DNA of 64,000 nucleotides from the NCBI GenBank assembly GCA_046727855.1, contig JBKPDL010000036.1, positions 65-64,064 on the forward strand, in the 5' to 3' direction. The position numbers and the translations under genes were made by a program. Below the pieces are notes generated by a model. The model did no database searches. It was not told the DNA's origin and saw nothing but the letters and a program-made list of their open reading frames with translations. Within the stretch, counting starts at the first letter, position 1, and each line of letters begins with the position of its first letter. This document shows positions 481 through 57,002 of the stretch, piece by piece. Source of the DNA: Acidobacteriota bacterium (GTDB lineage Bacteria > Acidobacteriota > Vicinamibacteria > Vicinamibacterales > UBA2999).

Positions 481-575
481 CCTCGTCCGATCGTAAGAAC
501 TGCTTACGGCAAAAATCGTTTGCCGCGCTTGATCTTCGCGTTTTCGCGTTTCGTTTCAGCCTTTATCGTTCGTCG

Positions 576-592
576 TTCTTCGTTCTTCGTTC
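576..592 (-). repeat. GAACGAAGAACGAAGAA 17-mer (sense on minus strand), copy 1 of 3
   Basis: Plus strand reads TTCTTCGTTCTTCGTTC. The identical 17-mer occurs at 18588-18604 and its reverse complement at 56920-56936. It starts 7 nt after the TGA (600-602) of the upstream minus-strand gene and sits in a TTCG-rich AT-rich tract (541-599). Confidence 0.9.
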
Positions 593-599
593 CTCGTCC

Positions 600-2213
<1,614 letters not shown>

Positions 2214-18485: not shown

Positions 18486-18534
18486 GTTCAAAGTTCAAAG
18501 TTCAAAGTTCAAAGTTCAAAGTTCAAAGTTCAAA
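18486..18534. repeat. (GTTCAAA)7 perfect heptanucleotide tandem repeat
   Basis: Seven exact units counted from 18486. Lies in the 154-nt spacer between two co-directional minus-strand genes (SDR stop 18613, SBP-like start 18458). Confidence 0.95.
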
Positions 18535-18587
18535 GTTTTAGTTCGCCAGTTTCTCAAGTTCTAAGTTCTTGCCTCTTCGGTCTTGTT

Positions 18588-18604
18588 TTCTTCGTTCTTC
18601 GTTC
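18588..18604 (-). repeat. GAACGAAGAACGAAGAA 17-mer, copy 2 of 3
   Basis: Plus strand TTCTTCGTTCTTCGTTC, identical to 576-592. Starts 8 nt after the TAG (18613-18615) of the minus-strand SDR gene. Confidence 0.9.
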
Positions 18605-23788: not shown

Positions 23789-25093
23789 ATGTCGCTCTTC
23801 GTCACCGAGATGCGCGTGCTCGACATCCGGTTCCCGACGGCACGTGCCGCCGTCGGCACCGATGCGATGCACCCGGATCCCAATTACTCCGCGGCGTACG
23901 TCATCCTCGAAACGAATGACGGCGGACTCGAAGGACACGGACTCACGTTCACCATCGGCCGCGGCAACGAAGTGTGTGTGGCTGCCATCCACGCCTTCCG
24001 CGAGCACGTCGTCGGACGCCGTGTTGCCGATCTCACGCACGATCTCGGGGCGTTCTGGCGGCAACTCGCCGGCGATTCACAACTGCGATGGCTCGGACCC
24101 GAAAAGGGCGTCATCCACCTCGCGATGGCTGCCGTGGTAAACGCGGTATGGGATCTGTACGCGAAGGTCGAAGGCAAGCCGATATGGAAGCTGCTCGCGG
24201 ACATGACGCCGCAGGAATTGGTCCGCTGTATCGACTTCCGTTATCTCACCGACGCGCTCACGCCTGACGAAGCGCTCGATCTTCTGCAACGCCAGCAGCC
24301 TGGCAAAGCCGATCGCGAACGCACGCTTTTTCGATCGGGATATCCGGCGTACACGACATCCGCCGGCTGGATCGGATACTCCGACGAGCGCATTCGTCAG
24401 GCCTGTCGTGATGCGCTGGCACAGGGCTGGACACACTTCAAAGTGAAAGTTGGCGGCGCACCGGAGGACGATGCGCGGCGCGTCGCGCTGGTGCGAGAGG
24501 CGATCGGCCAGGAACACATCTTGATGATCGACGCCAATCAGCGGTGGGACGTCGGCGAAGCTATTGCGAGAGTGAAGGCGCTGAGCCGGTTCAAGCTGCT
24601 CTGGATCGAAGAGCCAACCAGTCCGGACGATGTTCTCGGCCACGCCGCGATCGCGCGGGCAGTGGCACCGGTCGGCGTCGCCACAGGCGAACACTGCGCC
24701 AATCGCGTGCTGTTCAAGCAGTTGCTTCAGGCCGGCGCAATGAGCTACTGCCAAATCGACAGCTGCCGCCTCGGCGGCGTCAACGAAAATCTCGCCGTCA
24801 TTCTCCTCGCCGCCAAGTTCGGCGTGCCGGTATGCCCACATGCCGGCGGCGTCGGCCTCTGCGAACTGGTGCAGCACTTGTCGATGTTCGACTTCATCGC
24901 GGTAACGGGAACAATGGAGCGCCGCGTCACCGAATTCGTTGATCATCTGCACGAGCACTTCGTGGACCCTGTCGTGATCAGAAACGCGCGCTATATGCCG
25001 CCGCTCCGGCCCGGCTACTCGGCAACGATCCAGCCGGAGTCCCGCGAGTACTATTCGTATCCGGACGGTCGCGCATGGGCAGAGTCGTCGTAG
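23789..25093 (+). CDS. fucD: L-fuconate dehydratase (enolase superfamily, mandelate racemase subgroup)
   Basis: ATG 23789 within ORF 23444..25093. [51 protein letters not shown] matches my recollection of the characterised Xanthomonas FucD N-terminus. Confidence 0.8.
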
Positions 25094-27375
25094 CAATTGC
25101 GCTCGCGCTTCTGGCGCAGGCGCCGCCAACCGGTCGAACGAGCGCGCCGCGTGGAGAGCACGTGCTCTGGTACCGGGCTGCCGCGCCACAGTGGGATCAC
25201 GCCATGCCGCTCGGCAACGGACGGCTCGGCGCGATGGTATTCGGCAACGTCAATCGCGAACGCATTCAACTCAACGAACAGACGTTGTGGATGGGTGGGC
25301 CGCGAGAGCGGGACAATCCGGATGCGTTGACGCATTTACCCGAAGTTCGACGACTGCTGTTCGAGGGAAAGCCGCGCGAAGCGTACGCGGTCGCCGAACG
25401 CTATCTCATGGGCAAGCCGTCGCGTCTCGAGTCCTACCAGACGCTCGGCGATCTACGGCTCAATTTCGATTACGAAGATCCAATCACAGACTATCGCCGC
25501 GAGCTCGATCTGGATACGGCAGTGGCGCGCGTCTCGTACCTCGTCAACGGCGTCGGTTATACCCGCGAGACCTTCGTCTCGCATCCCGATCAGGCGATCG
25601 TTGTTCGCGTCACGGCCGATCGACCCCGACAGGTGACCGTTGGCGTCTGGATGGACCGATCGCAGGACGCCACCACGACCATCGCTGGCAATGACCGGCT
25701 CGATCTGGCCGGGAAACTAGGCGGAGGCGCCGGCTTGTCCTTTCTTGCGTCGGCAAAGGTGATGGCCGAGGGCGGTACGCAGGAGACCTTTCCCGAGCGC
25801 ATCTTCGTCGAGGGCGCCGACGCCGTCACGATCGTTCTTGCGGCGCGGACCTCGTTTCGCAGCAGCGATCCGGCAGCACGGGTCGCGCACGACATCCGCG
25901 GTGCAACGGCAAAGCCGCATTCACGGCTCCTTGCAGATCACGTGGCCGATCACCAGCGGCTGTTCCAACGCGTCGATTTCCAGCTTGACGCGCCGGTTGC
26001 TGCCGACGTCGCGGCGATGCCCACCGATCAACGGCTCGAGCGCGTCAAGGCGGGCCAGTCCGACGCAGGAGTGGATTCACTCTTCTTTCAATTCGGGCGC
26101 TACCTTTTGATCGCGAGCAGCCGTCCGGGCAATCTGCCCGCGAACCTGCAGGGCCTTTGGAACGACAGCATGAGCCCACCGTGGGATGCCGACTATCACC
26201 TCAACATCAACCTGCAGATGAATTACTGGCCGGCGGAGGTCACCAACCTCGCGGAGTTGCACGAGCCGCTGTTTGATTTTCTCGAGTCGTTACGCGAGCC
26301 CGGCCGGCGGACGGCGCGCATCCACTACGGCGCGCGCGGATTCGTCGCGCATCACATCTCAGACGTATGGGGCTTCACATCGCCGGGCGACCTGCCGCGT
26401 TCCGGTCTGTGGCCCACGGGCGCGGCATGGCTGACGCAGCATCTCTGGGAGCACTATCAGTTCGGCCTCGATCGCGCGTTCCTTGAGCGCGCGTATCCGA
26501 CCATGAAGGAAGCCGCCGATTTCTTTCTCGATTATCTTGTTGCCGACCCCAAAGGGCGGCTGGTAAGTGGTCCGTCTGTCTCGCCGGAGAATCGCTATCG
26601 TCTGCCGAACGGGCAGGTCGGCATTCTGACGATGGGACCCTCAATGGATCACCAGATCATCGCGGGCCTCTTTCTTCAGACGGAACGCGCGAGCGAGCTT
26701 CTTGGCGTCGACGCGGCGTTCCGTCAAACGCTCGCAGCCTCACGGGCGAAACTGCCCGCTCCCGCAATCGGCAAACACGGGCAGATTCAGGAGTGGTCCG
26801 AAGACTACGACGAGCCCGAGCCCGGTCATCGCCACATCTCGCAACTCTTCGCCTTGCATCCCGGCGATCAAATCACGATGCGCGGCACGCCGGCGCTCGC
26901 ACGCGCGGCGCGCGCCACCATCGAGCGGCGCCTGGCGCATGGCGGTGGCCACACCGGCTGGAGCCGCGCGTGGATCATCAACTTTTGGGCGCGGCTCGAG
27001 GACGGCGAACAGGCGTACGAGAACTACCAGGCGCTGCTTGCAAAGTCCACGCTCCCCAACCTGTGGGACCTGCATCCGCCGTTTCAAATCGACGGCAACT
27101 TCGGAGGCACGGCCGGCGTTGCGGAGATGCTCGTGCAAAGCCACGCGGGTGAAATCCATTTGCTGCCGGCGCTGCCGCGTGCCTGGTCCAACGGTATGGT
27201 TCGCGGTCTGCGCGCGCGCGGCAACGTCGAAATCGCCATCGAGTGGAACGGCGGTCGCGTGCAGCGTGCAACGTTCATGTCAACGACGGGAGGCGCGCAT
27301 CGGATTCGCGTCAACGGCAGCGCGTCCGAAATCTCGCTGAAGCCCGGTCATCCTTACGAGATGACGTTCAACTAG
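25075..27375 (+). CDS. glycoside hydrolase family 95 (alpha-L-fucosidase)
   Basis: 766 aa. Signal peptide. [27 protein letters not shown]...[11 protein letters not shown] is the GH95 N-domain signature. The TAG stop (27373-27375) lies inside repeat unit P. Confidence 0.9.
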
Positions 27376-27425
27376 CCAAGGGCCCTGCCCTTGATATCCG
27401 GCTAACTCCGCGGCCCTTGCCTAGT
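27371..27425. repeat. 55-nt palindromic repeat unit P, copy 1 (REP/MITE-like hairpin)
   Basis: ACTAGCCAAGGGCC...GGCCCTTGCCTAGT. It is the reverse complement of the copies at 28391-28445 and 56936-56990 with 1 mismatch (hand alignment). Confidence 0.9.
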
Positions 27426-27512
27426 TGGCTTGGCGCGCTCCGCGCGCCGTAGACCGTTATGCGGGTCCACAACGCGTACAAAATTCACGTCTGTGGCCGC
27501 ATAACGGTCTAA
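27426..27512. repeat. 87-nt repeat unit Q, copy 1 (two internal hairpins)
   Basis: Contains GGCGCGC-TCC-GCGCGCC and TAGACCGTTATGCGG...CCGCATAACGGTCTA. The inverted copy lies at 28295-28381, with ~3 mismatches by hand alignment. Confidence 0.9.
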
Positions 27513-27527
27513 GTCTGCCCGCGCGCG

Positions 27528-28046
27528 TCACGGCGCCTTGGGAACTGTCCAGAGGAACAACTCGACTTCGTCGGCAAGAAGGCGGCGGTCGGGCGCCCAC
27601 TTCCCAATCTGAAACTGTTCCGAAACAACTCTGGTCCCGGGTTTGAGCTCGGCGCGAAGTTTTGGTTCGAGCCGCGCGTTGACCGAGTTCGACAGGTACA
27701 ACGTCACCACGGTCGCTTTCGAAATATCCGCTGCGAACAGATCACCTTCGATAAAGGTGACCCGATCGCCGACGCCGCTTTCCTGCGCAATCTGGCGGGC
27801 GATCGCCACCAGCTTGGGATCGAGCTCGATACCAACCCCGCGTGACCCATACTTCTGTGCCGCGAGGATGACGATGCGGCCGTCGCCGGATCCGAGATCG
27901 TAAACAATATCGTCCTTGCTGACGCCGGCGAGCCGCAGCATGGCATCGGCAACGGCGTGACGCGTCGGGACGAAAAAGATGTCGGGCGTGCGGGCTGGCG
28001 CTTGCGTCATGAAAAGCGCGGCCGCGAGCAGGGAAAGACTCTTCAT
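27528..28046 (-). CDS. class I SAM-dependent methyltransferase with N-terminal signal peptide
   Basis: 172 aa. MKSLSLLAAALFMTQAPA leader, motif I VYDLGSGDGRIVI, post-I GIELD, then FIEGDLF. The only gene between the inverted P/Q arms. Confidence 0.8.
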   Translation of the reverse strand: MKSLSLLAAALFMTQAPARTPDIFFVPTRHAVADAMLRLAGVSKDDIVYDLGSGDGRIVILAAQKYGSRGVGIELDPKLVAIARQIAQESGVGDRVTFIEGDLFAADISKATVVTLYLSNSVNARLEPKLRAELKPGTRVVSEQFQIGKWAPDRRLLADEVELFLWTVPKAP

Positions 28047-28294
28047 GGCCCTTCCTACGATATCGCTGGTTGCGTTGCGCTGTGTTTGTGCGGGATGAAA
28101 ACGGTTCCATGCTCATCGACGACGTCGGTGCGCGATCTCGTCCATGCTGCCCGCGGGTTTCGAAAACAGGTGCGCGGATACGAGCTCTGGACGCTCTTTG
28201 TGCCCGCCGAAGCCGGCGTACGGACCAGGCGGCTCGGGACCGATCGCGATTTTCAGGCGACGAAGCTGCCGGTCTTTCGCATGAGATTGCTGGG

Positions 28295-28381
28295 TTAGAC
28301 CGTTACGCGGCCACAGACATGAATTTTGTACGCGTTGTGGACCCGCATAACGGTCTACAGCGCGCGGAGCGCGCCAAGCCA
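28295..28381. repeat. repeat unit Q, copy 2 (inverted)
   Basis: Reverse complement of 27426-27512 apart from ~3 substitutions. Followed by a 9-nt spacer ACAACAAGA, then P copy 2. Confidence 0.9.
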
Positions 28382-28390
28382 ACAACAAGA

Positions 28391-28445
28391 ACTAGCCAAG
28401 GGCCGCGGAGTTAGCCGGATATCAAGGGCAGGGCCCTTGGCTAGT
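28391..28445. repeat. palindromic repeat unit P, copy 2
   Basis: ACTAGCCAAGGGCCGCGGAGTTAGCCGGATATCAAGGGCAGGGCCCTTGGCTAGT. Identical to 56936-56990; identity extends over 61 nt (28387-28447 = 56932-56992). Confidence 0.95.
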
Positions 28446-28447
28446 TC

Positions 28448-28806
28448 GGAGCAGCCAGTCTGCTGCTCACGGCCATCGGCGTGTACGGGCTCGTCGCGCA
28501 CGGCGTCGCCCGGCGCATCCGCGAGATCGGCATCCGCATGGAACTCGGGCGACCGCTGGCGAAGTGATCGCCCGCGTGACCCGCTCGGCGATCAGGGCGG
28601 CTGTCGTTGGCGCCACCAGCGGCATCGCGATCGCGATCGTGTTCACGAGGATGCTGCAGGCAGTGGTTTATGGCGTGCAGACCACCGGCGCCGTCTCCTA
28701 CGTCTCGGCTGCTGCGGTCTTATTGCTTGTTACGGCTGGTTCGGCATTTCTCCCGGCCCTGCAGGCAACTCGCATCAACGCGGTCGACGTGCTGCGTTCG
28801 GAGTGA
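28448..28806 (+). pseudogene. FtsX/MacB-type (ADOP-like) ABC permease remnant: last ~115 codons only, plus a frameshift
   Basis: Own translation gives [34 protein letters not shown], then a frame break at the GGG run 28547-28549. One extra G would give [18 protein letters not shown] 28564..28806 then continues to ...LPALQATRINAVDVLRSE, the canonical FtsX C-terminus. Begins directly at the end of repeat P. Confidence 0.8.
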
Positions 28807-30729
28807 GGGTTCGATCTTCATGACGAACCCGCCGCGCGCGCGCAGCGGAACTTCGATCACGTCCTTGGCCGCCACGGGGCGCGCGCTGCTGTTGAACGCG
28901 CGATCGTCGGCGCCGTCGCGAATCAACGTCATCTGAAACGCGCCCGTCCCGAGAAAACCGGGCGCGACACGCACGGTACGAGCCGTATCGGCATTGAGCC
29001 CACCGACGTACCACACGCTGCCGCTCCGCCGCGCGACGATGACGAATGCTCCCGGCCCGCCCGCGAGCGCGCGCGTGTCGTCCCACGCCGATGGCACGCT
29101 CTTCAGAAACGCCTTTGGCTCGGCGGGCAGCGACTCGTACGCCTTGACGCTATCGGCAAAATGCTGCACGCCGGTGGTGAAGACAACCGACAACGCGAGC
29201 TCGTGCGCGTTGGTCGTGGTGCGTTTGAACTTGTGATCCGTGAACGTGACCGGCGTGTAGTCCATCACGCCGAGGGCGTTTCGTGTAAACGGCAGGATCG
29301 TGTTGTGCGACGCGGCGCGAGTGCTGAACGCCTCGCGAAATTTGTACTGCTCCGCGCCAAACACGGCTTCCATCCCCACCAGGTGCGGGAACTCGCGCTC
29401 CCAGCCGCGAGGAATGGTCGACCCGTGAAAGTTGACGAGCAATTGGAAGTCGGCCGCGTCTTCGAGAACCTCCCGGTACTGCTGGATGCGGTCCTGCTTG
29501 TCGCTGTGCCAGAAGTCCACTTTGACGCCCTTGATGCCCCAGTCGCGAATCTTCGCAAGCTCGGCCCGGCGCACGTCGCGTACGTGCATGCGGTCGCGCG
29601 GCGCCTCGGTGACGTCGTTGTGCGGACCACCGGAGTTGTACCAAAGCAGGAGACCAACGTTCTTCTCGCGCGCGTGCGCGATCACCTCGTCGATCGTGCC
29701 CGTCTGCATGAAGTTCCAGTTCGCATCGACAAGCGCGTATTCCCATCCCATCGCCGCCGCCAGATCGGTGAACGCGTTGAGCCGTTCGGCGTGCTTGGGG
29801 CTGTCGCTATCCGACCACCAGCTCCACGCCGCGCGGCCAGGTTTAATCCAGCTCGTGTCCTTGATCCGCGTCGGCGGTGCGAGATCGTTCACCAAATCCG
29901 ACACGAGAATGTCGCCCGCGGTGTCGCCGACAATGACCACTCGCCAGGGCAATGTCCATGGGATCGTGGCGGTCGGATTCACGGCGCCAACGCCCATGCC
30001 CTCCCTGGCATCAGGAAACGCGAGGCGATAAAGGCCGCCGCTCGCATCGGCCCCAAGATGCGAGCCGCAGTAGCTCCCATCGAGCCCGCTCTCTGAAATC
30101 AGCAGCCACGGGCCGGTCGCGGCATGGAAGAGGGCCGGGAACGACCAGCCGTCGGACCGCGGCGCGCGCGCTCCTGCTGCGACCTCTTCAAAAAACTCCT
30201 CGTACGCCGGACCATACCGATGAACTTCCTGCTGCGGCTCCAGCCACGCCGTTGACCGCGACGGTACCCGGAAGCCGGTGAGCTCTTCGACAACCGTCTT
30301 GCGCTCTCCAGCGGTTCCGGCAAAGTCAGGAAACCGATAGCGGAAGGCGACGCCGTCGTCATGTGCGCGAAGCACGATCTCGATTCGCGCGTTCGCGGCG
30401 TTGGCGAACGTGACGACGCGTTCGCGCCCGCGAACCTGGTGCTCGCGGCGTTTCCCGTGCGGCGTCGTGTAGCGCTCCTCGACGGGCCTGATGTCGGTGG
30501 CGTTGACGAACGTGAGCGTATCGACAAACGCCTGATCGCTGCGCCGAATGCCAAGCGGCGAATCGGCCAGAACGAGCGCGCCGCGATGCGTGACGCGCCA
30601 CAACAGTTGACCGCTGCCCTGCCGCGTCAAGACAATCGCCGTGCGATTGTCCGGGGAGTTGACGCTCCACTGCTGCGCCGCCGCCGGGGTAACGTGAAGG
30701 AGCACAAGCGCCATCACGAGGCGAGTCAT
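28720..30729 (-). CDS. glycoside hydrolase family 97 (alpha-glucosidase/alpha-galactosidase type)
   Basis: 669 aa. Signal peptide. GIKGVKVDFWHSDKQDRIQQYREVLEDAADFQLLVNFHGSTIPRGWEREFPHLVGMEAVFGAEQYKF is the GH97 catalytic-domain signature. The last ~30 codons run antisense into the FtsX remnant. Confidence 0.9.
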   Translation of the reverse strand: MTRLVMALVLLHVTPAAAQQWSVNSPDNRTAIVLTRQGSGQLLWRVTHRGALVLADSPLGIRRSDQAFVDTLTFVNATDIRPVEERYTTPHGKRREHQVRGRERVVTFANAANARIEIVLRAHDDGVAFRYRFPDFAGTAGERKTVVEELTGFRVPSRSTAWLEPQQEVHRYGPAYEEFFEEVAAGARAPRSDGWSFPALFHAATGPWLLISESGLDGSYCGSHLGADASGGLYRLAFPDAREGMGVGAVNPTATIPWTLPWRVVIVGDTAGDILVSDLVNDLAPPTRIKDTSWIKPGRAAWSWWSDSDSPKHAERLNAFTDLAAAMGWEYALVDANWNFMQTGTIDEVIAHAREKNVGLLLWYNSGGPHNDVTEAPRDRMHVRDVRRAELAKIRDWGIKGVKVDFWHSDKQDRIQQYREVLEDAADFQLLVNFHGSTIPRGWEREFPHLVGMEAVFGAEQYKFREAFSTRAASHNTILPFTRNALGVMDYTPVTFTDHKFKRTTTNAHELALSVVFTTGVQHFADSVKAYESLPAEPKAFLKSVPSAWDDTRALAGGPGAFVIVARRSGSVWYVGGLNADTARTVRVAPGFLGTGAFQMTLIRDGADDRAFNSSARPVAAKDVIEVPLRARGGFVMKIEPSLRTQHVDRVDASCLQGREKCRTSRNKQ

Positions 30730-30750: not shown

Positions 30751-31917
30751 ATGTGGACGCGGCGGCAGGTTTTGGTGTTACCGATGGGCATCGCGGCCTC
30801 GAGCGTGGCGCGCGCACAGGGGCTCGACCTGGTTTCGTTCGAGCGCGCGCGTGTGCTTCGCATCGCGAACAAACTTCTGAACGAGGCGCCCGTCACCGTC
30901 ACGTCCGCATCCAGCCCACGCAGCGCCGGCGGACCGCACGACTACTTTTCCGAAGGGGACTACTGGTGGCCTGACCCGCAGAATCCGGATGGTCCGTACA
31001 TCCAGCGCGACGGCGAAAGCAATCCCGACAACTTTCTCGCGCATCGGCGCGCGCTGATGCGTCTGAGTGTGCACGTGCCGGCGCTCGCGGTCGCCTGGCT
31101 GGTGACGAAGCAACAGCGGTACTCGGATCACGCGCGGCGCCACCTGCGCGCGTGGTTTCGCGACGAGCCAACGCGCATGACGCCGCACCTGCTGTATTCG
31201 CAGGCGATCAAAGGACGCTTCACGGGCCGCGGCACCGGGATCATCGACACCGTCCATCTTGTCGAAGTGGCGCGCGCCATAACTGTCCTCGAGCGCGGTA
31301 AGCAGCTGGCGGACGAGGAGCAGACGGCCTTCCGCGACTGGTTTTCGCGCTATCTCACCTGGATGACGACACACCAGTACGGCATCGATGAGCGTGAGGC
31401 ACGCAACAACCACGGCACGTGCTGGGTGATGCAGGTGGCGGAGTTCGCGCGATACGTGGGGCGCGACGATCTCGTCGCCTACTGCCGCGATCGTTACCGC
31501 ACTGTGCTCGTCCCGAATCAGATCGCCGCGGACGGGAGCTTCCCCGAAGAACTGCGGCGCACGAAGCCGTACGGGTATTCACTGTTCAATCTCGACGGCA
31601 TGGCGATGTGTTGCGAGATTCTGAGCGCTCCGCAGGACAGTCTCTGGACCTTCGAGCTGGCCGACGGACGCGGCATCCGCAAGGCCTTTGCGTTCCTGGT
31701 GCCGTTTATCGCAGACAAGAAGAAGTGGACGCGAACGCCCGACGTCATGTATTTCGACGAATGGCCGGTGAGACAGCCGGCGCTGTTGTTTGGCGGCATC
31801 GGGTTGCACGAGCCGTCCTACATCGAGTTGTGGAAGAAGCTGAATCCGGATCCGACTGTTGAGGAAGTGGTGCGGAATTATTTCATCCGGCAGCCGGTAT
31901 TGTGGTCGCGGACCTAG
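30751..31917 (+). CDS. alginate-lyase-family (PF05426-like) polysaccharide lyase, secreted
   Basis: ATG 30751 within ORF 30361..31917. Signal peptide MWTRRQVLVLPMGIAASSVARAQG. PRSAGGPHDYFSEGDYWWPDPQNPDGPYIQRDGESNPDNF matches the family as I recall it. Substrate unknown. Confidence 0.65.
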   Translation: MWTRRQVLVLPMGIAASSVARAQGLDLVSFERARVLRIANKLLNEAPVTVTSASSPRSAGGPHDYFSEGDYWWPDPQNPDGPYIQRDGESNPDNFLAHRRALMRLSVHVPALAVAWLVTKQQRYSDHARRHLRAWFRDEPTRMTPHLLYSQAIKGRFTGRGTGIIDTVHLVEVARAITVLERGKQLADEEQTAFRDWFSRYLTWMTTHQYGIDEREARNNHGTCWVMQVAEFARYVGRDDLVAYCRDRYRTVLVPNQIAADGSFPEELRRTKPYGYSLFNLDGMAMCCEILSAPQDSLWTFELADGRGIRKAFAFLVPFIADKKKWTRTPDVMYFDEWPVRQPALLFGGIGLHEPSYIELWKKLNPDPTVEEVVRNYFIRQPVLWSRT

Positions 31918-31930
31918 CCGGTATTGCGGT

Positions 31931-31950
31931 CGCGGACCTAAAGGTCCGCG
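31931..31950. terminator. GC-rich hairpin between convergent genes (CGCGGACC-TAAA-GGTCCGCG)
   Basis: 8-bp perfect stem with a 4-nt loop, read directly. Lies between stop 31917 (+) and stop 31976 (-). No clear U-tract. Confidence 0.4.
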
Positions 31951-54049: not shown

Positions 54050-54310
54050 GGCGCGCTCCTTGGGCTTGTCGGACGCTCCCGTTACAAGTCTTCGTAAACG
54101 CCCATTCTTTGCGCAACCTCTTCTCTACATCGAGGTCACCGTTGCGCGCGAGCCAATTCAGGAGCGCGAAGTGCATCAGATCCCAATGCCTACTTGCCGC
54201 CTGACGCGCAAGCGCCGCCAGCACGTCATGCCAGATCCGCAGCCCAGTTCCTTCGGCAACATCTGCCACGGAATCGCGCTGCGAGATGCGGGTTTTGTCA
54301 CGCGCTCTTT

Positions 54311-54336
54311 AGTTCGTCGTTCTCAGTTCGTCGTTC
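54311..54336 (-). repeat. direct repeat (GAACGACGAACT)x2 in sense orientation, GAAC-word family
   Basis: Plus strand AGTTCGTCGTTC at 54311-54322 and 54325-54336. Begins 14 nt after the TAG (54351-54353) of the minus-strand oxidoreductase gene. GAACGACGAAC also occurs in the 541-599 tract. Confidence 0.85.
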
Positions 54337-56911: not shown

Positions 56912-56919
56912 CGGAGCTA

Positions 56920-56936
56920 GAACGAAGAACGAAGAA
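56920..56936 (+). repeat. GAACGAAGAACGAAGAA 17-mer, copy 3 of 3
   Basis: Exact reverse complement of 576-592 and 18588-18604. Starts 8 nt after the TAG (56909-56911) of the plus-strand M24 gene and abuts repeat P copy 3. Confidence 0.9.
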
Positions 56937-56990
56937 CTAGCCAAGGGCCGCGGAGTTAGCCGGATATCAAGGGCAGGGCCCTTGGCTAGT
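56936..56990. repeat. palindromic repeat unit P, copy 3 (solo)
   Basis: Identical to 28391-28445. Sits between convergent genes (M24 stop 56911, GntR stop 57003), where it could act as a bidirectional terminator hairpin (13-16 bp stem). Confidence 0.95.
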
Positions 56991-57002
56991 TCTCCAATTC
57001 CT

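Follow-up and report, generated by a model that had tools for sequence, protein, structure and literature searches.

The closest described counterparts of the repeat reported here are the REP, BIME and REPIN elements of Proteobacteria, which are associated with RAYT proteins. They are short extragenic hairpin repeats built as mosaics of palindromic units with fixed linkers; they are multicopy and long-lived within a lineage, have neither terminal inverted repeats (TIRs) nor target duplications, and are found chiefly at the 3' ends of genes or in the gaps between convergent ones. In Acidobacteria, high-copy hairpin repeats have been tied to class 3 Y1 endonucleases (PMC6006769) and to TIRYTs (PMC3733652). 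Around 600 copies of the repeats flanking class 3 TnpA-Y1 genes are given for Solibacter usitatus (PMC6006769). BOX of Streptococcus pneumoniae and Correia/NEMIS of Neisseria are modular (boxA-B-C-like) or ~100–150-bp structured intergenic repeats, inserted beside genes and able to alter gene ends or expression. The miniature elements derived from IS200/IS605 (PATEs) carry different subterminal hairpins at each end and leave no target duplication.

The locus compared here with these systems lies in a 64,000-nt stretch of DNA from an Acidobacteriota bacterium, referred to below as the window. It contains two inverted arms on either side of a single gene, and each arm is a composite of three hairpin modules designated P, GC and Q. 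The relevant features are the following:

25075..27375, + strand: GH95 gene, with its TAG stop within P of the left composite
27370..27512, - strand (Q to P direction): left composite repeat, the older copy (lengths of the arms ~145/153 nt), made of the P hairpin 27370-27426, a 5-nt spacer 27427-27431, the GC hairpin 27432-27448 and the Q hairpin 27450-27511
27528..28046, - strand: class I SAM methyltransferase gene, aKMT/DOT1-like, 172 aa, with a conserved hydrophobic N-terminus, apparently resident
28281..28806, + strand: ADOP-family (FtsX) permease pseudogene remnant, matching TIGR03434 at positions 726-803 of 803
28295..28447, + strand: right composite repeat, a recent insertion inside the ADOP/FtsX pseudogene, made of the Q hairpin 28296-28357, the GC hairpin 28359-28375, the full 14-nt spacer AAGCCAACAACAAG 28376-28389 and the P hairpin 28389-28447
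28720..30729, - strand: GH97 gene, whose final ~29 codons overlap the ADOP remnant in antisense
56934..56992, strand not assigned: solo P hairpin, with the same sequence as P of the right arm (100% identity)

The initial annotation described two inverted arms with three hairpins each, and the repeat search, the pairwise alignment and the folding z-scores all agree with it. The repeat search of the window returned an inverted pair of 89 nt with 97% complementarity and 782 nt between its members (27424-27512 / 28295-28383), together with a second pair of 78 nt (27370-27447 / 28369-28446) whose complementarity is only 86% because of an indel. According to the pairwise alignment, Q differs between the arms by three substitutions and P by one, which matches the earlier hand count of about three and one, and the stretch from P to the GC hairpin has a 9-nt indel. 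The indel had been taken for an extra 9-nt spacer in the right arm; it is instead a 9-nt deletion in the left arm, since the long spacer of 13–14 nt is found in other members of the family and in the left-arm orthologue of locus L109. The composite is a non-coding unit of ~145–155 bp with the order Q hairpin, GGCGCGC-nnn-GCGCGCC hairpin, short A-rich spacer and P hairpin. Compared with shuffled sequences, the right arm folds as DNA with z = -6.3 and the left arm as RNA with z = -6.8, in both cases into three consecutive hairpins. The 62-nt Q core is expected to have 0 chance matches in the window, and the census of the 64 kb amounts to two composites and one solo P, the latter placed after a (GAACGAA)n-like tract between convergent M24 peptidase and GntR/FCD genes.

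In all probability, the arms represent two independent insertions, in opposite orientations, of one mosaic repeat from a REP/BIME/REPIN-like family widespread in Acidobacteriota. Filled and empty alleles carry this reading. Two metagenome contigs from different samples, L001 (99.9% identical to the window) and L116 (99.0–99.6%), have the left arm and lack the right one; in place of the 153-nt arm they read ...GCTGCTCCGAAC-C-AACCCAGCAATC..., and the ADOP frame is unbroken at this point. The right arm is therefore a very recent insertion of ~150 bp. It is a presence/absence polymorphism within a population of 99–99.9% identity, and the composite moves as a single insertion unit. The left arm occupies the same site in L109-L114 (95–97% identity) and is missing from the sister species L002 (91–92%) and from L003/L004; it is the older of the two, the arms having arrived at different times. 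Because the 9-nt spacer deletion is already present in the left arm of L001, which has no right arm, and because the spacer of the right arm has the family-typical 14 nt, the left arm in its present form was not the donor of the right one. A composite in L109 (1-124), situated nearby at an alginate-lyase site that is free of any element in the window, shares an identical spacer and P with the right arm. A copy of the element in L109 also holds a nested true MITE, with TIRs of 22 nt and a duplicated TTAG.

The insertions also affect the ends of the neighbouring genes. The C-terminus of GH95 reads F-N-TAG in the window versus F-K-TGA/TAA in its orthologues, so that the earlier proposal of a stop codon provided by the left arm holds: the TAG lies inside P, and the insertion of the left composite put its P end in place of the gene's last codon and stop. 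The stop codon of the L109 alginate lyase has likewise been rewritten by the element. More generally, the element ends bear TAG/CTA and frequently cover, or substitute for, a neighbouring gene's stop codon. On the other side of the methyltransferase gene, the initial annotation had placed the right arm against the tail of a truncated FtsX gene. A decayed FtsX gene is indeed present, reduced to its C-terminal ~170 codons and carrying a 1-nt frameshift near 28553; the arm, however, does not abut this tail but interrupts it, since both the ADOP homology and the reading frame run on across this position in alleles that lack the arm. The split falls between the codons ...MRLLG and (W)FGAAS.... The truncation of FtsX is older than both arms, and they are not its cause.

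Filled and empty right-arm alleles are one nucleotide apart, with one nucleotide extra and a C (G on the + strand) replaced, and AAC/GTT already stands on both sides of the site in the empty allele. The insertion was consequently not a textbook precise event. No clean target duplication is present at the right-arm site, the one site for which both flanks and an empty allele are known. The two empty sites, GGTTGGTT and GGCTAGGT, look like the P terminus GGCTAGTT, a likeness that could point instead to microhomology-mediated copying. Beyond these two sites and a frequent T before TAGACC, no target-site consensus emerged.

Copies of the composite are dispersed. Full composites lie beside unrelated genes at L007, L015, L020, L050, L054, L077, L089, L095, L098 and L100, and the MAG JBOGIR01 alone has at least three. 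The order Q-GC-spacer-P is kept in 12 copies from several MAGs, as expected of a BIME-type mosaic, and there are module variants as well, namely sub-families with another module in place of P and solo P copies. The alignment of the 12 copies comprises 33 pairs in three helices, with 97.7% of the cells paired versus 25–39% when the alignment is slid; five pairs show double compensatory changes, a number reached in 0 of 500 shuffles. Such changes maintain the hairpins, and the pairing together with the fold z-scores (-6.3/-6.8) gives the composite the stable hairpins typical of REP/REPIN. The stem sequence is conserved across orders of Acidobacteriota. Among the matches listed in the genome-collection scan, most were chance 15-mers in unrelated phyla, and real extended similarity was confined to Acidobacteriota loci; a search of metagenomes for the Q loop specific to the window returned only one further contig, L100. 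The recognition of the arms as REP/MITE-like hairpin repeats has thus stood, with copies found singly beside unrelated genes, and the contrary case considered at that time, P+Q arms existing nowhere else, does not apply given the dispersed composites. Copy-orientation statistics derived from GC3-based gene calling were too coarse to be reliable.

The initial annotation saw in the arms and the methyltransferase one non-autonomous hairpin-ended cassette, a REPtron- or IS200-like unit with non-transposase cargo that moves or traps the gene. Inverted arms that are 97% alike around one gene invite such a reading, as does a hairpin-ended layout recalling REPtrons and IS200/IS605. The gene itself was correctly identified, as the ORF 27528-28046(-) is annotated as a class I methyltransferase of 172 aa, but it is the only gene between the arms, in the place where a REPtron or IS200/IS605 unit has a Y1 (HUH) transposase. 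The arms, moreover, differ in age and are separable, the composite is single elsewhere, and the ~1.08-kb module was not found at any other locus. In a composite transposon the arms and the cargo are gained and lost together, whereas here L001 and L116 possess the left arm only and the supposed cargo is syntenic in L002, L003 and L004, where it adjoins GH95 without the arms and in the same orientation. We therefore give the cassette almost no credence; the methyltransferase appears to be an ordinary resident gene between two landing sites and not cargo. The other proposal of the initial annotation, a recombination product between REP clusters, is not needed, because the orientation of the gene relative to GH95 is the same with and without arms. 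It is also very improbable that template switching or recombination over the 782 bp produced the right arm as an inverted local copy of the left one. The closeness, inversion and high similarity of the arms would fit, but the right arm retains the ancestral 14-nt spacer that the left arm had lost in the same population (L001), three Q substitutions and one P substitution separate them, and an identical spacer and P exist at the L109 lyase site, with an identical solo P at 56.9 kb.

Two further readings concern the nature of the composite. Its size of ~150 bp, non-coding character, insertion polymorphism and multiple copies would suit a classical MITE, moved by the cut-and-paste activity of a DDE transposase acting on TIRs and generating a target-site duplication. 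Nevertheless, TTAGACC... at one end has no inverted counterpart in ...GGCTAGTT at the other, the one fully known site has no duplication, and the element nested in L109 shows what true MITEs of this lineage look like, which leaves this reading a very small chance of being right. The chance is better, albeit still low, that the composite is mainly a host-selected structured element, such as a 3'-end mRNA stabiliser, a terminator or a BIME-like binding site for a protein or gyrase, and that it spread by selection and not by selfish transposition. Stems conserved across orders, G-U-compatible changes, and copies placed at the 3' ends of genes or separating convergent ones all speak for it. On the other hand, G-U and A-C mismatches are similarly frequent, so no strand preference is evident, and the newest copy, instead of lying at a 3' end, landed in a pseudogene that precedes a gene. 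The arms show neither a terminator nor a promoter signal and have no T-run signature, and Rfam 15 yielded no match at gathering score for the window and none even at E<=10 for 27300-28520. A host-selected role is compatible with mobility.

Returning to the preferred reading of two independent insertions, the composite is best regarded as a new repeat family caught while spreading. The likeness to REP/BIME/REPIN appears to extend to the properties listed at the outset, whereas the composite differs in its longer stems (13–16 bp), large loops, three different hairpins moving as a ~150-bp unit, the lack of any RAYT linked to it in the DNA screened and the phylum. The 5' GTAG foot of REP is not conserved either: most copies have T-TAGACC, and GTAG was seen only in L098 and, within the window, on the inward-facing side of its copies. 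The class 3/TIRYT repeats share the phylum and have atypical secondary structures for which mobilisation by HUH/Y1 enzymes has been proposed, but a CnGA foot is described for them (PMC6006769; PMC3733652). Neither P nor Q matched any sequence in the supplementary data searched from the class 3 paper (PMC6006769), and the surroundings of P/Q examined here showed no class 3 gene. Correia elements, unlike the composite, have TIRs and a TA duplication, the BOX modules are of unrelated sequence, and neither possesses P/GC/Q hairpins. The insertion sites of PATEs lie 3' of a fixed tetra- or pentanucleotide and their excision is precise, in contrast to the weak T before TAGACC and the filled and empty alleles one nucleotide apart observed here.

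Hairpin ends combined with the lack of TIRs and target-site duplications suggest that the element may spread by copying of single-stranded DNA through a trans-acting enzyme recognising the conserved stems. The likeliest candidate would be an HUH/Y1 endonuclease of the RAYT type or of the 'class 3' type known from Acidobacteria. A phmmer screen of all six-frame ORFs with single-sequence RayT and IS200 TnpA probes, and hence of limited sensitivity, detected no Y1/HUH gene in the window or in ~0.9 Mb of loci. The right arm had no blastn match among plasmids and phages, and viral contigs gave only chance matches to Q 15-mers and none to the P hairpin pattern. The inverted pair around the methyltransferase would be a by-product of two insertions, through which the 782 bp in between could become more prone to being inverted or deleted, although neither was seen. 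A bolder version, in which we place little confidence, makes P-GC-Q an undescribed three-hairpin replicator of Acidobacteriota with a stem-specific copying enzyme (possibly class 3 Y1), preferring sites where its TAG/CTA termini meet stop codons or P-end-like sequence, the inverted pairs being the stage at which mobilisation or inversion of the gene between them would begin.

The apparent novelty of the locus, a gene cassette without a transposase, is thus gone. Its value lies in documenting, for an abundant soil phylum that has received little study, a mosaic repeat of REP/BIME-like type, with natural filled and empty alleles that capture recent movement as a single 150-bp unit and with gene ends rewritten in both GH95 and the alginate lyase. 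The filled/empty pairs and the 12-copy alignment provide a start for finding the mobilising enzyme and for annotating repeats absent from Rfam.

Some observations concern the resident genes themselves. The 234-bp leader contained no significant traces of PadR or of upstream ADOP sequence, and the window offered no ADOP paralogues with which to extend the pseudogene alignment; the resemblance of the scar to an internal deletion of a PadR-ADOP operon, arranged as in L005, is only an analogy. Exact-sequence look-ups of the GH95 and GntR-gene proteins gave no record. The methyltransferase family has more than 8000 homologues and conserves the hydrophobic N-terminus, which makes a Sec signal on this protein plausible.

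A repeat search of the window and direct alignment confirmed two inverted arms within 27369–28447. The search returned an inverted pair of 89 nt, 97% complementary and 782 nt apart (27424–27512 versus 28295–28383), and a second inverted match (27370–27447 versus 28369–28446). Aligned with each other, the arms differ by three substitutions in Q, by one in P and by an indel of 9 nt in the stretch linking P to the GC hairpin, exactly matching the counts made by hand in the initial annotation. Each arm contains three consecutive hairpins, the P stem of 13–16 bp, the GC hairpin GGCGCGC-nnn-GCGCGCC and the Q hairpin TAGACCGTTATGCGG...CCGCATAACGGTCTA, and its fold energy lies far under that of shuffled controls (z = -6.3 as DNA, -6.8 as RNA). 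The Q core (62 nt) is not expected to occur by chance. The features of the locus are as follows.

25075–27375, (+) strand: GH95 glycoside hydrolase gene
27370–27512: left arm
27528–28046, (-) strand: methyltransferase (MTase) gene, the sole ORF between the arms
28295–28447: right arm
28720–30729, (-) strand: GH97 glycoside hydrolase gene
31893–31940: 24-nt end of the alginate-lyase gene, duplicated in tandem
56932–56992: solo third P, between convergent genes

The identical MTase protein is encoded on a 1063-bp JGI contig, L001, which matches the window at 99.9% identity over the locus and carries the left arm, whereas in place of the 153-nt right arm it has the empty site ...GCTGCTCCGAAC-C-AACCCAGCAATC... 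The same empty site, continuing through the FtsX tail into GH97, is present in L116, a contig from a different sample retrieved via the 90% cluster of the MTase protein. In both empty alleles an uninterrupted 38-residue frame aligns without gaps to residues 788–825 of an intact ADOP permease; the ORF downstream of the right arm corresponds to the last 78 positions of TIGR03434 ADOP. The empty site and the continuous ADOP frame show that the right arm, the whole P-spacer-GC-Q unit, was inserted very recently, into an ADOP pseudogene that already carried its truncation and frameshift. The arm thus interrupts this pseudogene rather than abutting an FtsX tail, as had been supposed, and it did not cause the ADOP truncation. 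The final ~29 codons of GH97 run antisense through the ADOP/FtsX pseudogene (28720–28806).

The left arm is older than the right one. The contigs L109–L114, 95%–97% identical to the window, carry Q+GC and P at the position of the window left arm, with P again at the GH95 stop. Neither P nor Q is found in L002, a ~91% sister lineage with the same gene order GH97-MTase-GH95, or in L003/L004, where the MTase is 89% identical and the order is PMT_2-MTase-GH95. The GH95 protein terminates with ...F-N-TAG in the window versus ...F-K-TGA/TAA in these arm-less relatives, which indicates that the left arm replaced the last codon and the stop, and bears out the earlier proposal that it supplies the TAG. 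In L109 (3857–3979; also in L110–L112 and L114), a 123-nt element sits inside the TTAG at the Q end of the orthologous left arm; its terminal inverted repeats of 22 nt (CCCAGAGTTCACTTGAATTGAC / GTCAACGCAAGTGAATTGAGGG), TTAG duplication and IS5-like YTAR target mark it as a genuine classical MITE in the same lineage. In L109 (4066–4249), a ~166-nt sequence, GCCTCAGACCGTCGAGCATG...GGGCCGCCGAGGCTC, also splits the left-arm P stem (AACTA/.../CTAGCC); in L113 (800–965), it is joined to other downstream genes (Bestrophin-like, DUF308) and Q is deleted. This sequence may be a further mobile or recombination-prone segment, or it may mark a hotspot of rearrangement.

L109 starts within a further composite, which has exactly the spacer and P of the window right arm and abuts the alginate-lyase stop codon (GACC-TAA/CTAGCC). 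At this site the window has no element and contains the gene end in tandem, GCCGGTATTG(T/C)GGTCGCGGACCTA x2; in the outgroup L002 the gene end occurs once, with (GATTGCA)n after it. The presence of a composite in L109 and its absence from the window show that the lyase site is polymorphic; the duplication is either a pre-insertion target or a post-excision footprint. The family-typical 14-nt spacer occurs in the right arm, the L109 left arm and the L109 lyase-site copy, and the left arms of the window and L001 have lost 9 nt between GTT repeats. The 9-nt difference between the arms is a left-arm loss and not the extra right-arm spacer initially described. As L001 carries this deletion and lacks the right arm, the left arm in its present form is not the donor of the right arm, which came from another master copy. 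Heptamer-type tandem repeats, (GTTCAAA)n, (CGTTCTT)n, (GATTGCA)n and (GAGAGCTGA)n, are abundant in intergenic spacers of this lineage, and the composite spacer and the tract beside the solo P resemble these slippage-prone repeats.

Window 545–606, 18487–18604, 54300–54336, 56915–56937: heptamer-type tandem repeats
L002 10521–10567, 6190–6370: heptamer-type tandem repeats
L003 2760–2805: heptamer-type tandem repeats

Further copies, which the initial annotation had thought worth seeking, exist as P+Q composites at other loci and as the solo P, which matches the right-arm P at all 61 nt. When species-representative genomes were scanned for the Q stem, the matches listed were mostly chance 15-mers; in Acidobacteriota/Vicinamibacterales MAGs, the Q 15-mer opens a full composite of Q, GGCGCGC-nnn-GCGCGCC, a 13–14-nt A-rich spacer and P of the form AAC(T/C)AGCCAAGGGC...GCCCTTGGCT(A/G)GTT. 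The composites adjoin unrelated genes (L007, L015, L020, L050, L054, L077, L089, L095, L098), which supports the suggested REP-like nature of the arms, and the MAG JBOGIR01 contains at least three full ones. One further composite, L100, came from a metagenome scan with the window-specific Q loop; both of its long stems show compensatory changes, and an additional hairpin is nested in its P loop. Across 12 copies, the 33 base pairs of the three helices are 97.7% paired, versus 25%–39% with partners slid, and five pairs are changed on both sides, a number reached by none of 500 shuffles; because the copies were searched for with the 5' arm of helix 1, ascertainment accounts for part of the invariance of that arm. 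Across orders the stems keep their sequence, and loops are variable and tolerate nested hairpins. A sister sub-family (L009, L012, L027, L028, L068, L091) keeps Q and GC and has P swapped for a GC-rich module, CGCGAGGGAGCGGCGCGGGGCG(A/T)(A/G)GGGCCCCCGCGAGCG, and in Bryobacterales loci (L019, L060, L072) the Q stem occurs together with modules of the GATATCAAGGGCGCAGCCCTGG type. Q-like hairpins also score on contigs binned as Phycisphaerales (L083, 282–354) and Chthoniobacteraceae (L056, 156–205), reflecting either a wider family range or mis-binned Acidobacteriota contigs.

The ORF between the arms encodes a 172-aa class I SAM methyltransferase (Pfam Methyltransf_31/25, DOT1), with an archaeal protein-lysine methyltransferase model as top NCBIfam match, at a score under the cutoff, 5bxy and the aKMT entries 5fa8 and 5jwj as nearest solved structures, and more than 8000 homologous matches among the scored candidates. 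Its short hydrophobic N-terminus followed by PARTPD is kept in single-domain family members. A Sec signal is plausible; as an exported SAM-dependent enzyme would be odd, the segment may instead be a membrane anchor. The family is a very large, soil-metagenome one of ~170-aa aKMT/DOT1-like enzymes sharing this signal-like N-terminus, and related 292-aa proteins (P0003, P0005) are tandem domain duplications without it. The MTase is convergent with GH95 also in arm-less relatives, its orientation is unchanged whether arms are present or absent, and no second locus with the ~1.08-kb module was found. The reading of the locus as a gene-capturing cassette is unsupported, given that the arms can occur separately and differ in age, the MTase-GH95 adjacency exists without them and the module was found at no other locus; on this comparative evidence the MTase is not their cargo. 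In L005 (2406–6133), a 78%-identical MTase homologue is the divergent neighbour of an intact PadR-ADOP operon. Internal deletion of such an arrangement would yield the ADOP tail of the window, in whose leader no PadR trace remains.

The composite moves as a single unit, and we propose that it is mobilised in trans by an HUH/Y1-type enzyme. Its ends, T-TAGACC... and ...GGCTAGTT(C), are not related as inverted repeats, and no target duplication was found at the right-arm site, the only one for which both flanks and an empty allele are available, where the insertion replaces one nucleotide and the 3-nt AAC/GTT on both sides already occurs in the empty allele. REP/BIME/REPIN elements and IS200/IS605-type ends are processed as single-stranded hairpins by HUH/Y1 enzymes, and the composite resembles them in its conserved stems, variable loops, non-inverted ends and lack of target duplication. 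A GTAG foot is typical of RAYT substrates and is not conserved in the composite, hence membership in the strict RAYT-REP family is only putative. In Acidobacteria, class 3 TnpA-Y1 proteins occur with high-copy hairpin repeats, about 600 structures in Solibacter usitatus (PMC6006769), as do the TIRYTs, unusual Y1 proteins (PMC3733652). These REP/IS200-like features and the known acidobacterial Y1 proteins make trans-mobilisation the most likely mechanism, tentatively so since neither the window nor the fetched loci yielded a Y1 gene with single RayT and IS200 TnpA sequences as probes, the foot is not conserved and published descriptions of acidobacterial Y1-linked repeats contain no sequence matching P or Q.

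The alternative of microhomology-assisted copying is left some room by two empty sites, GGTTGGTT and GGCTAGGT, which resemble the P terminus, GGCTAGTT. A classical DDE-type MITE is unlikely, as the composite has neither terminal inverted repeats nor target duplication, in contrast to the MITE nested in the L109 left arm. Membership among MITEs, REPtrons or cassettes was rejected on the tested features. In its behaviour the element matches a mosaic repeat of BIME/REPIN type, and it is best classed there, as a newcomer from Acidobacteriota and not a new kind of system. It is a clear natural case of a new family of structured repeats that spreads and rewrites the ends of genes.

Neither a T-run terminator signature nor a sigma-70-like promoter is present on the arms, and they have no Rfam relatives. 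The left arm lies between convergent genes, both of which it may provide with a 3' structure; the MTase starts 248 nt downstream of the right arm. Inversion or hairpin-driven deletion could arise from two inverted copies that are 97% identical and 782 bp apart; no such allele was seen. The L109 group has an independent 679-bp deletion between GH97 and the MTase, leaving a 670-aa GH97 whose stop overlaps the MTase start, and L113 carries another rearrangement in the spacer.
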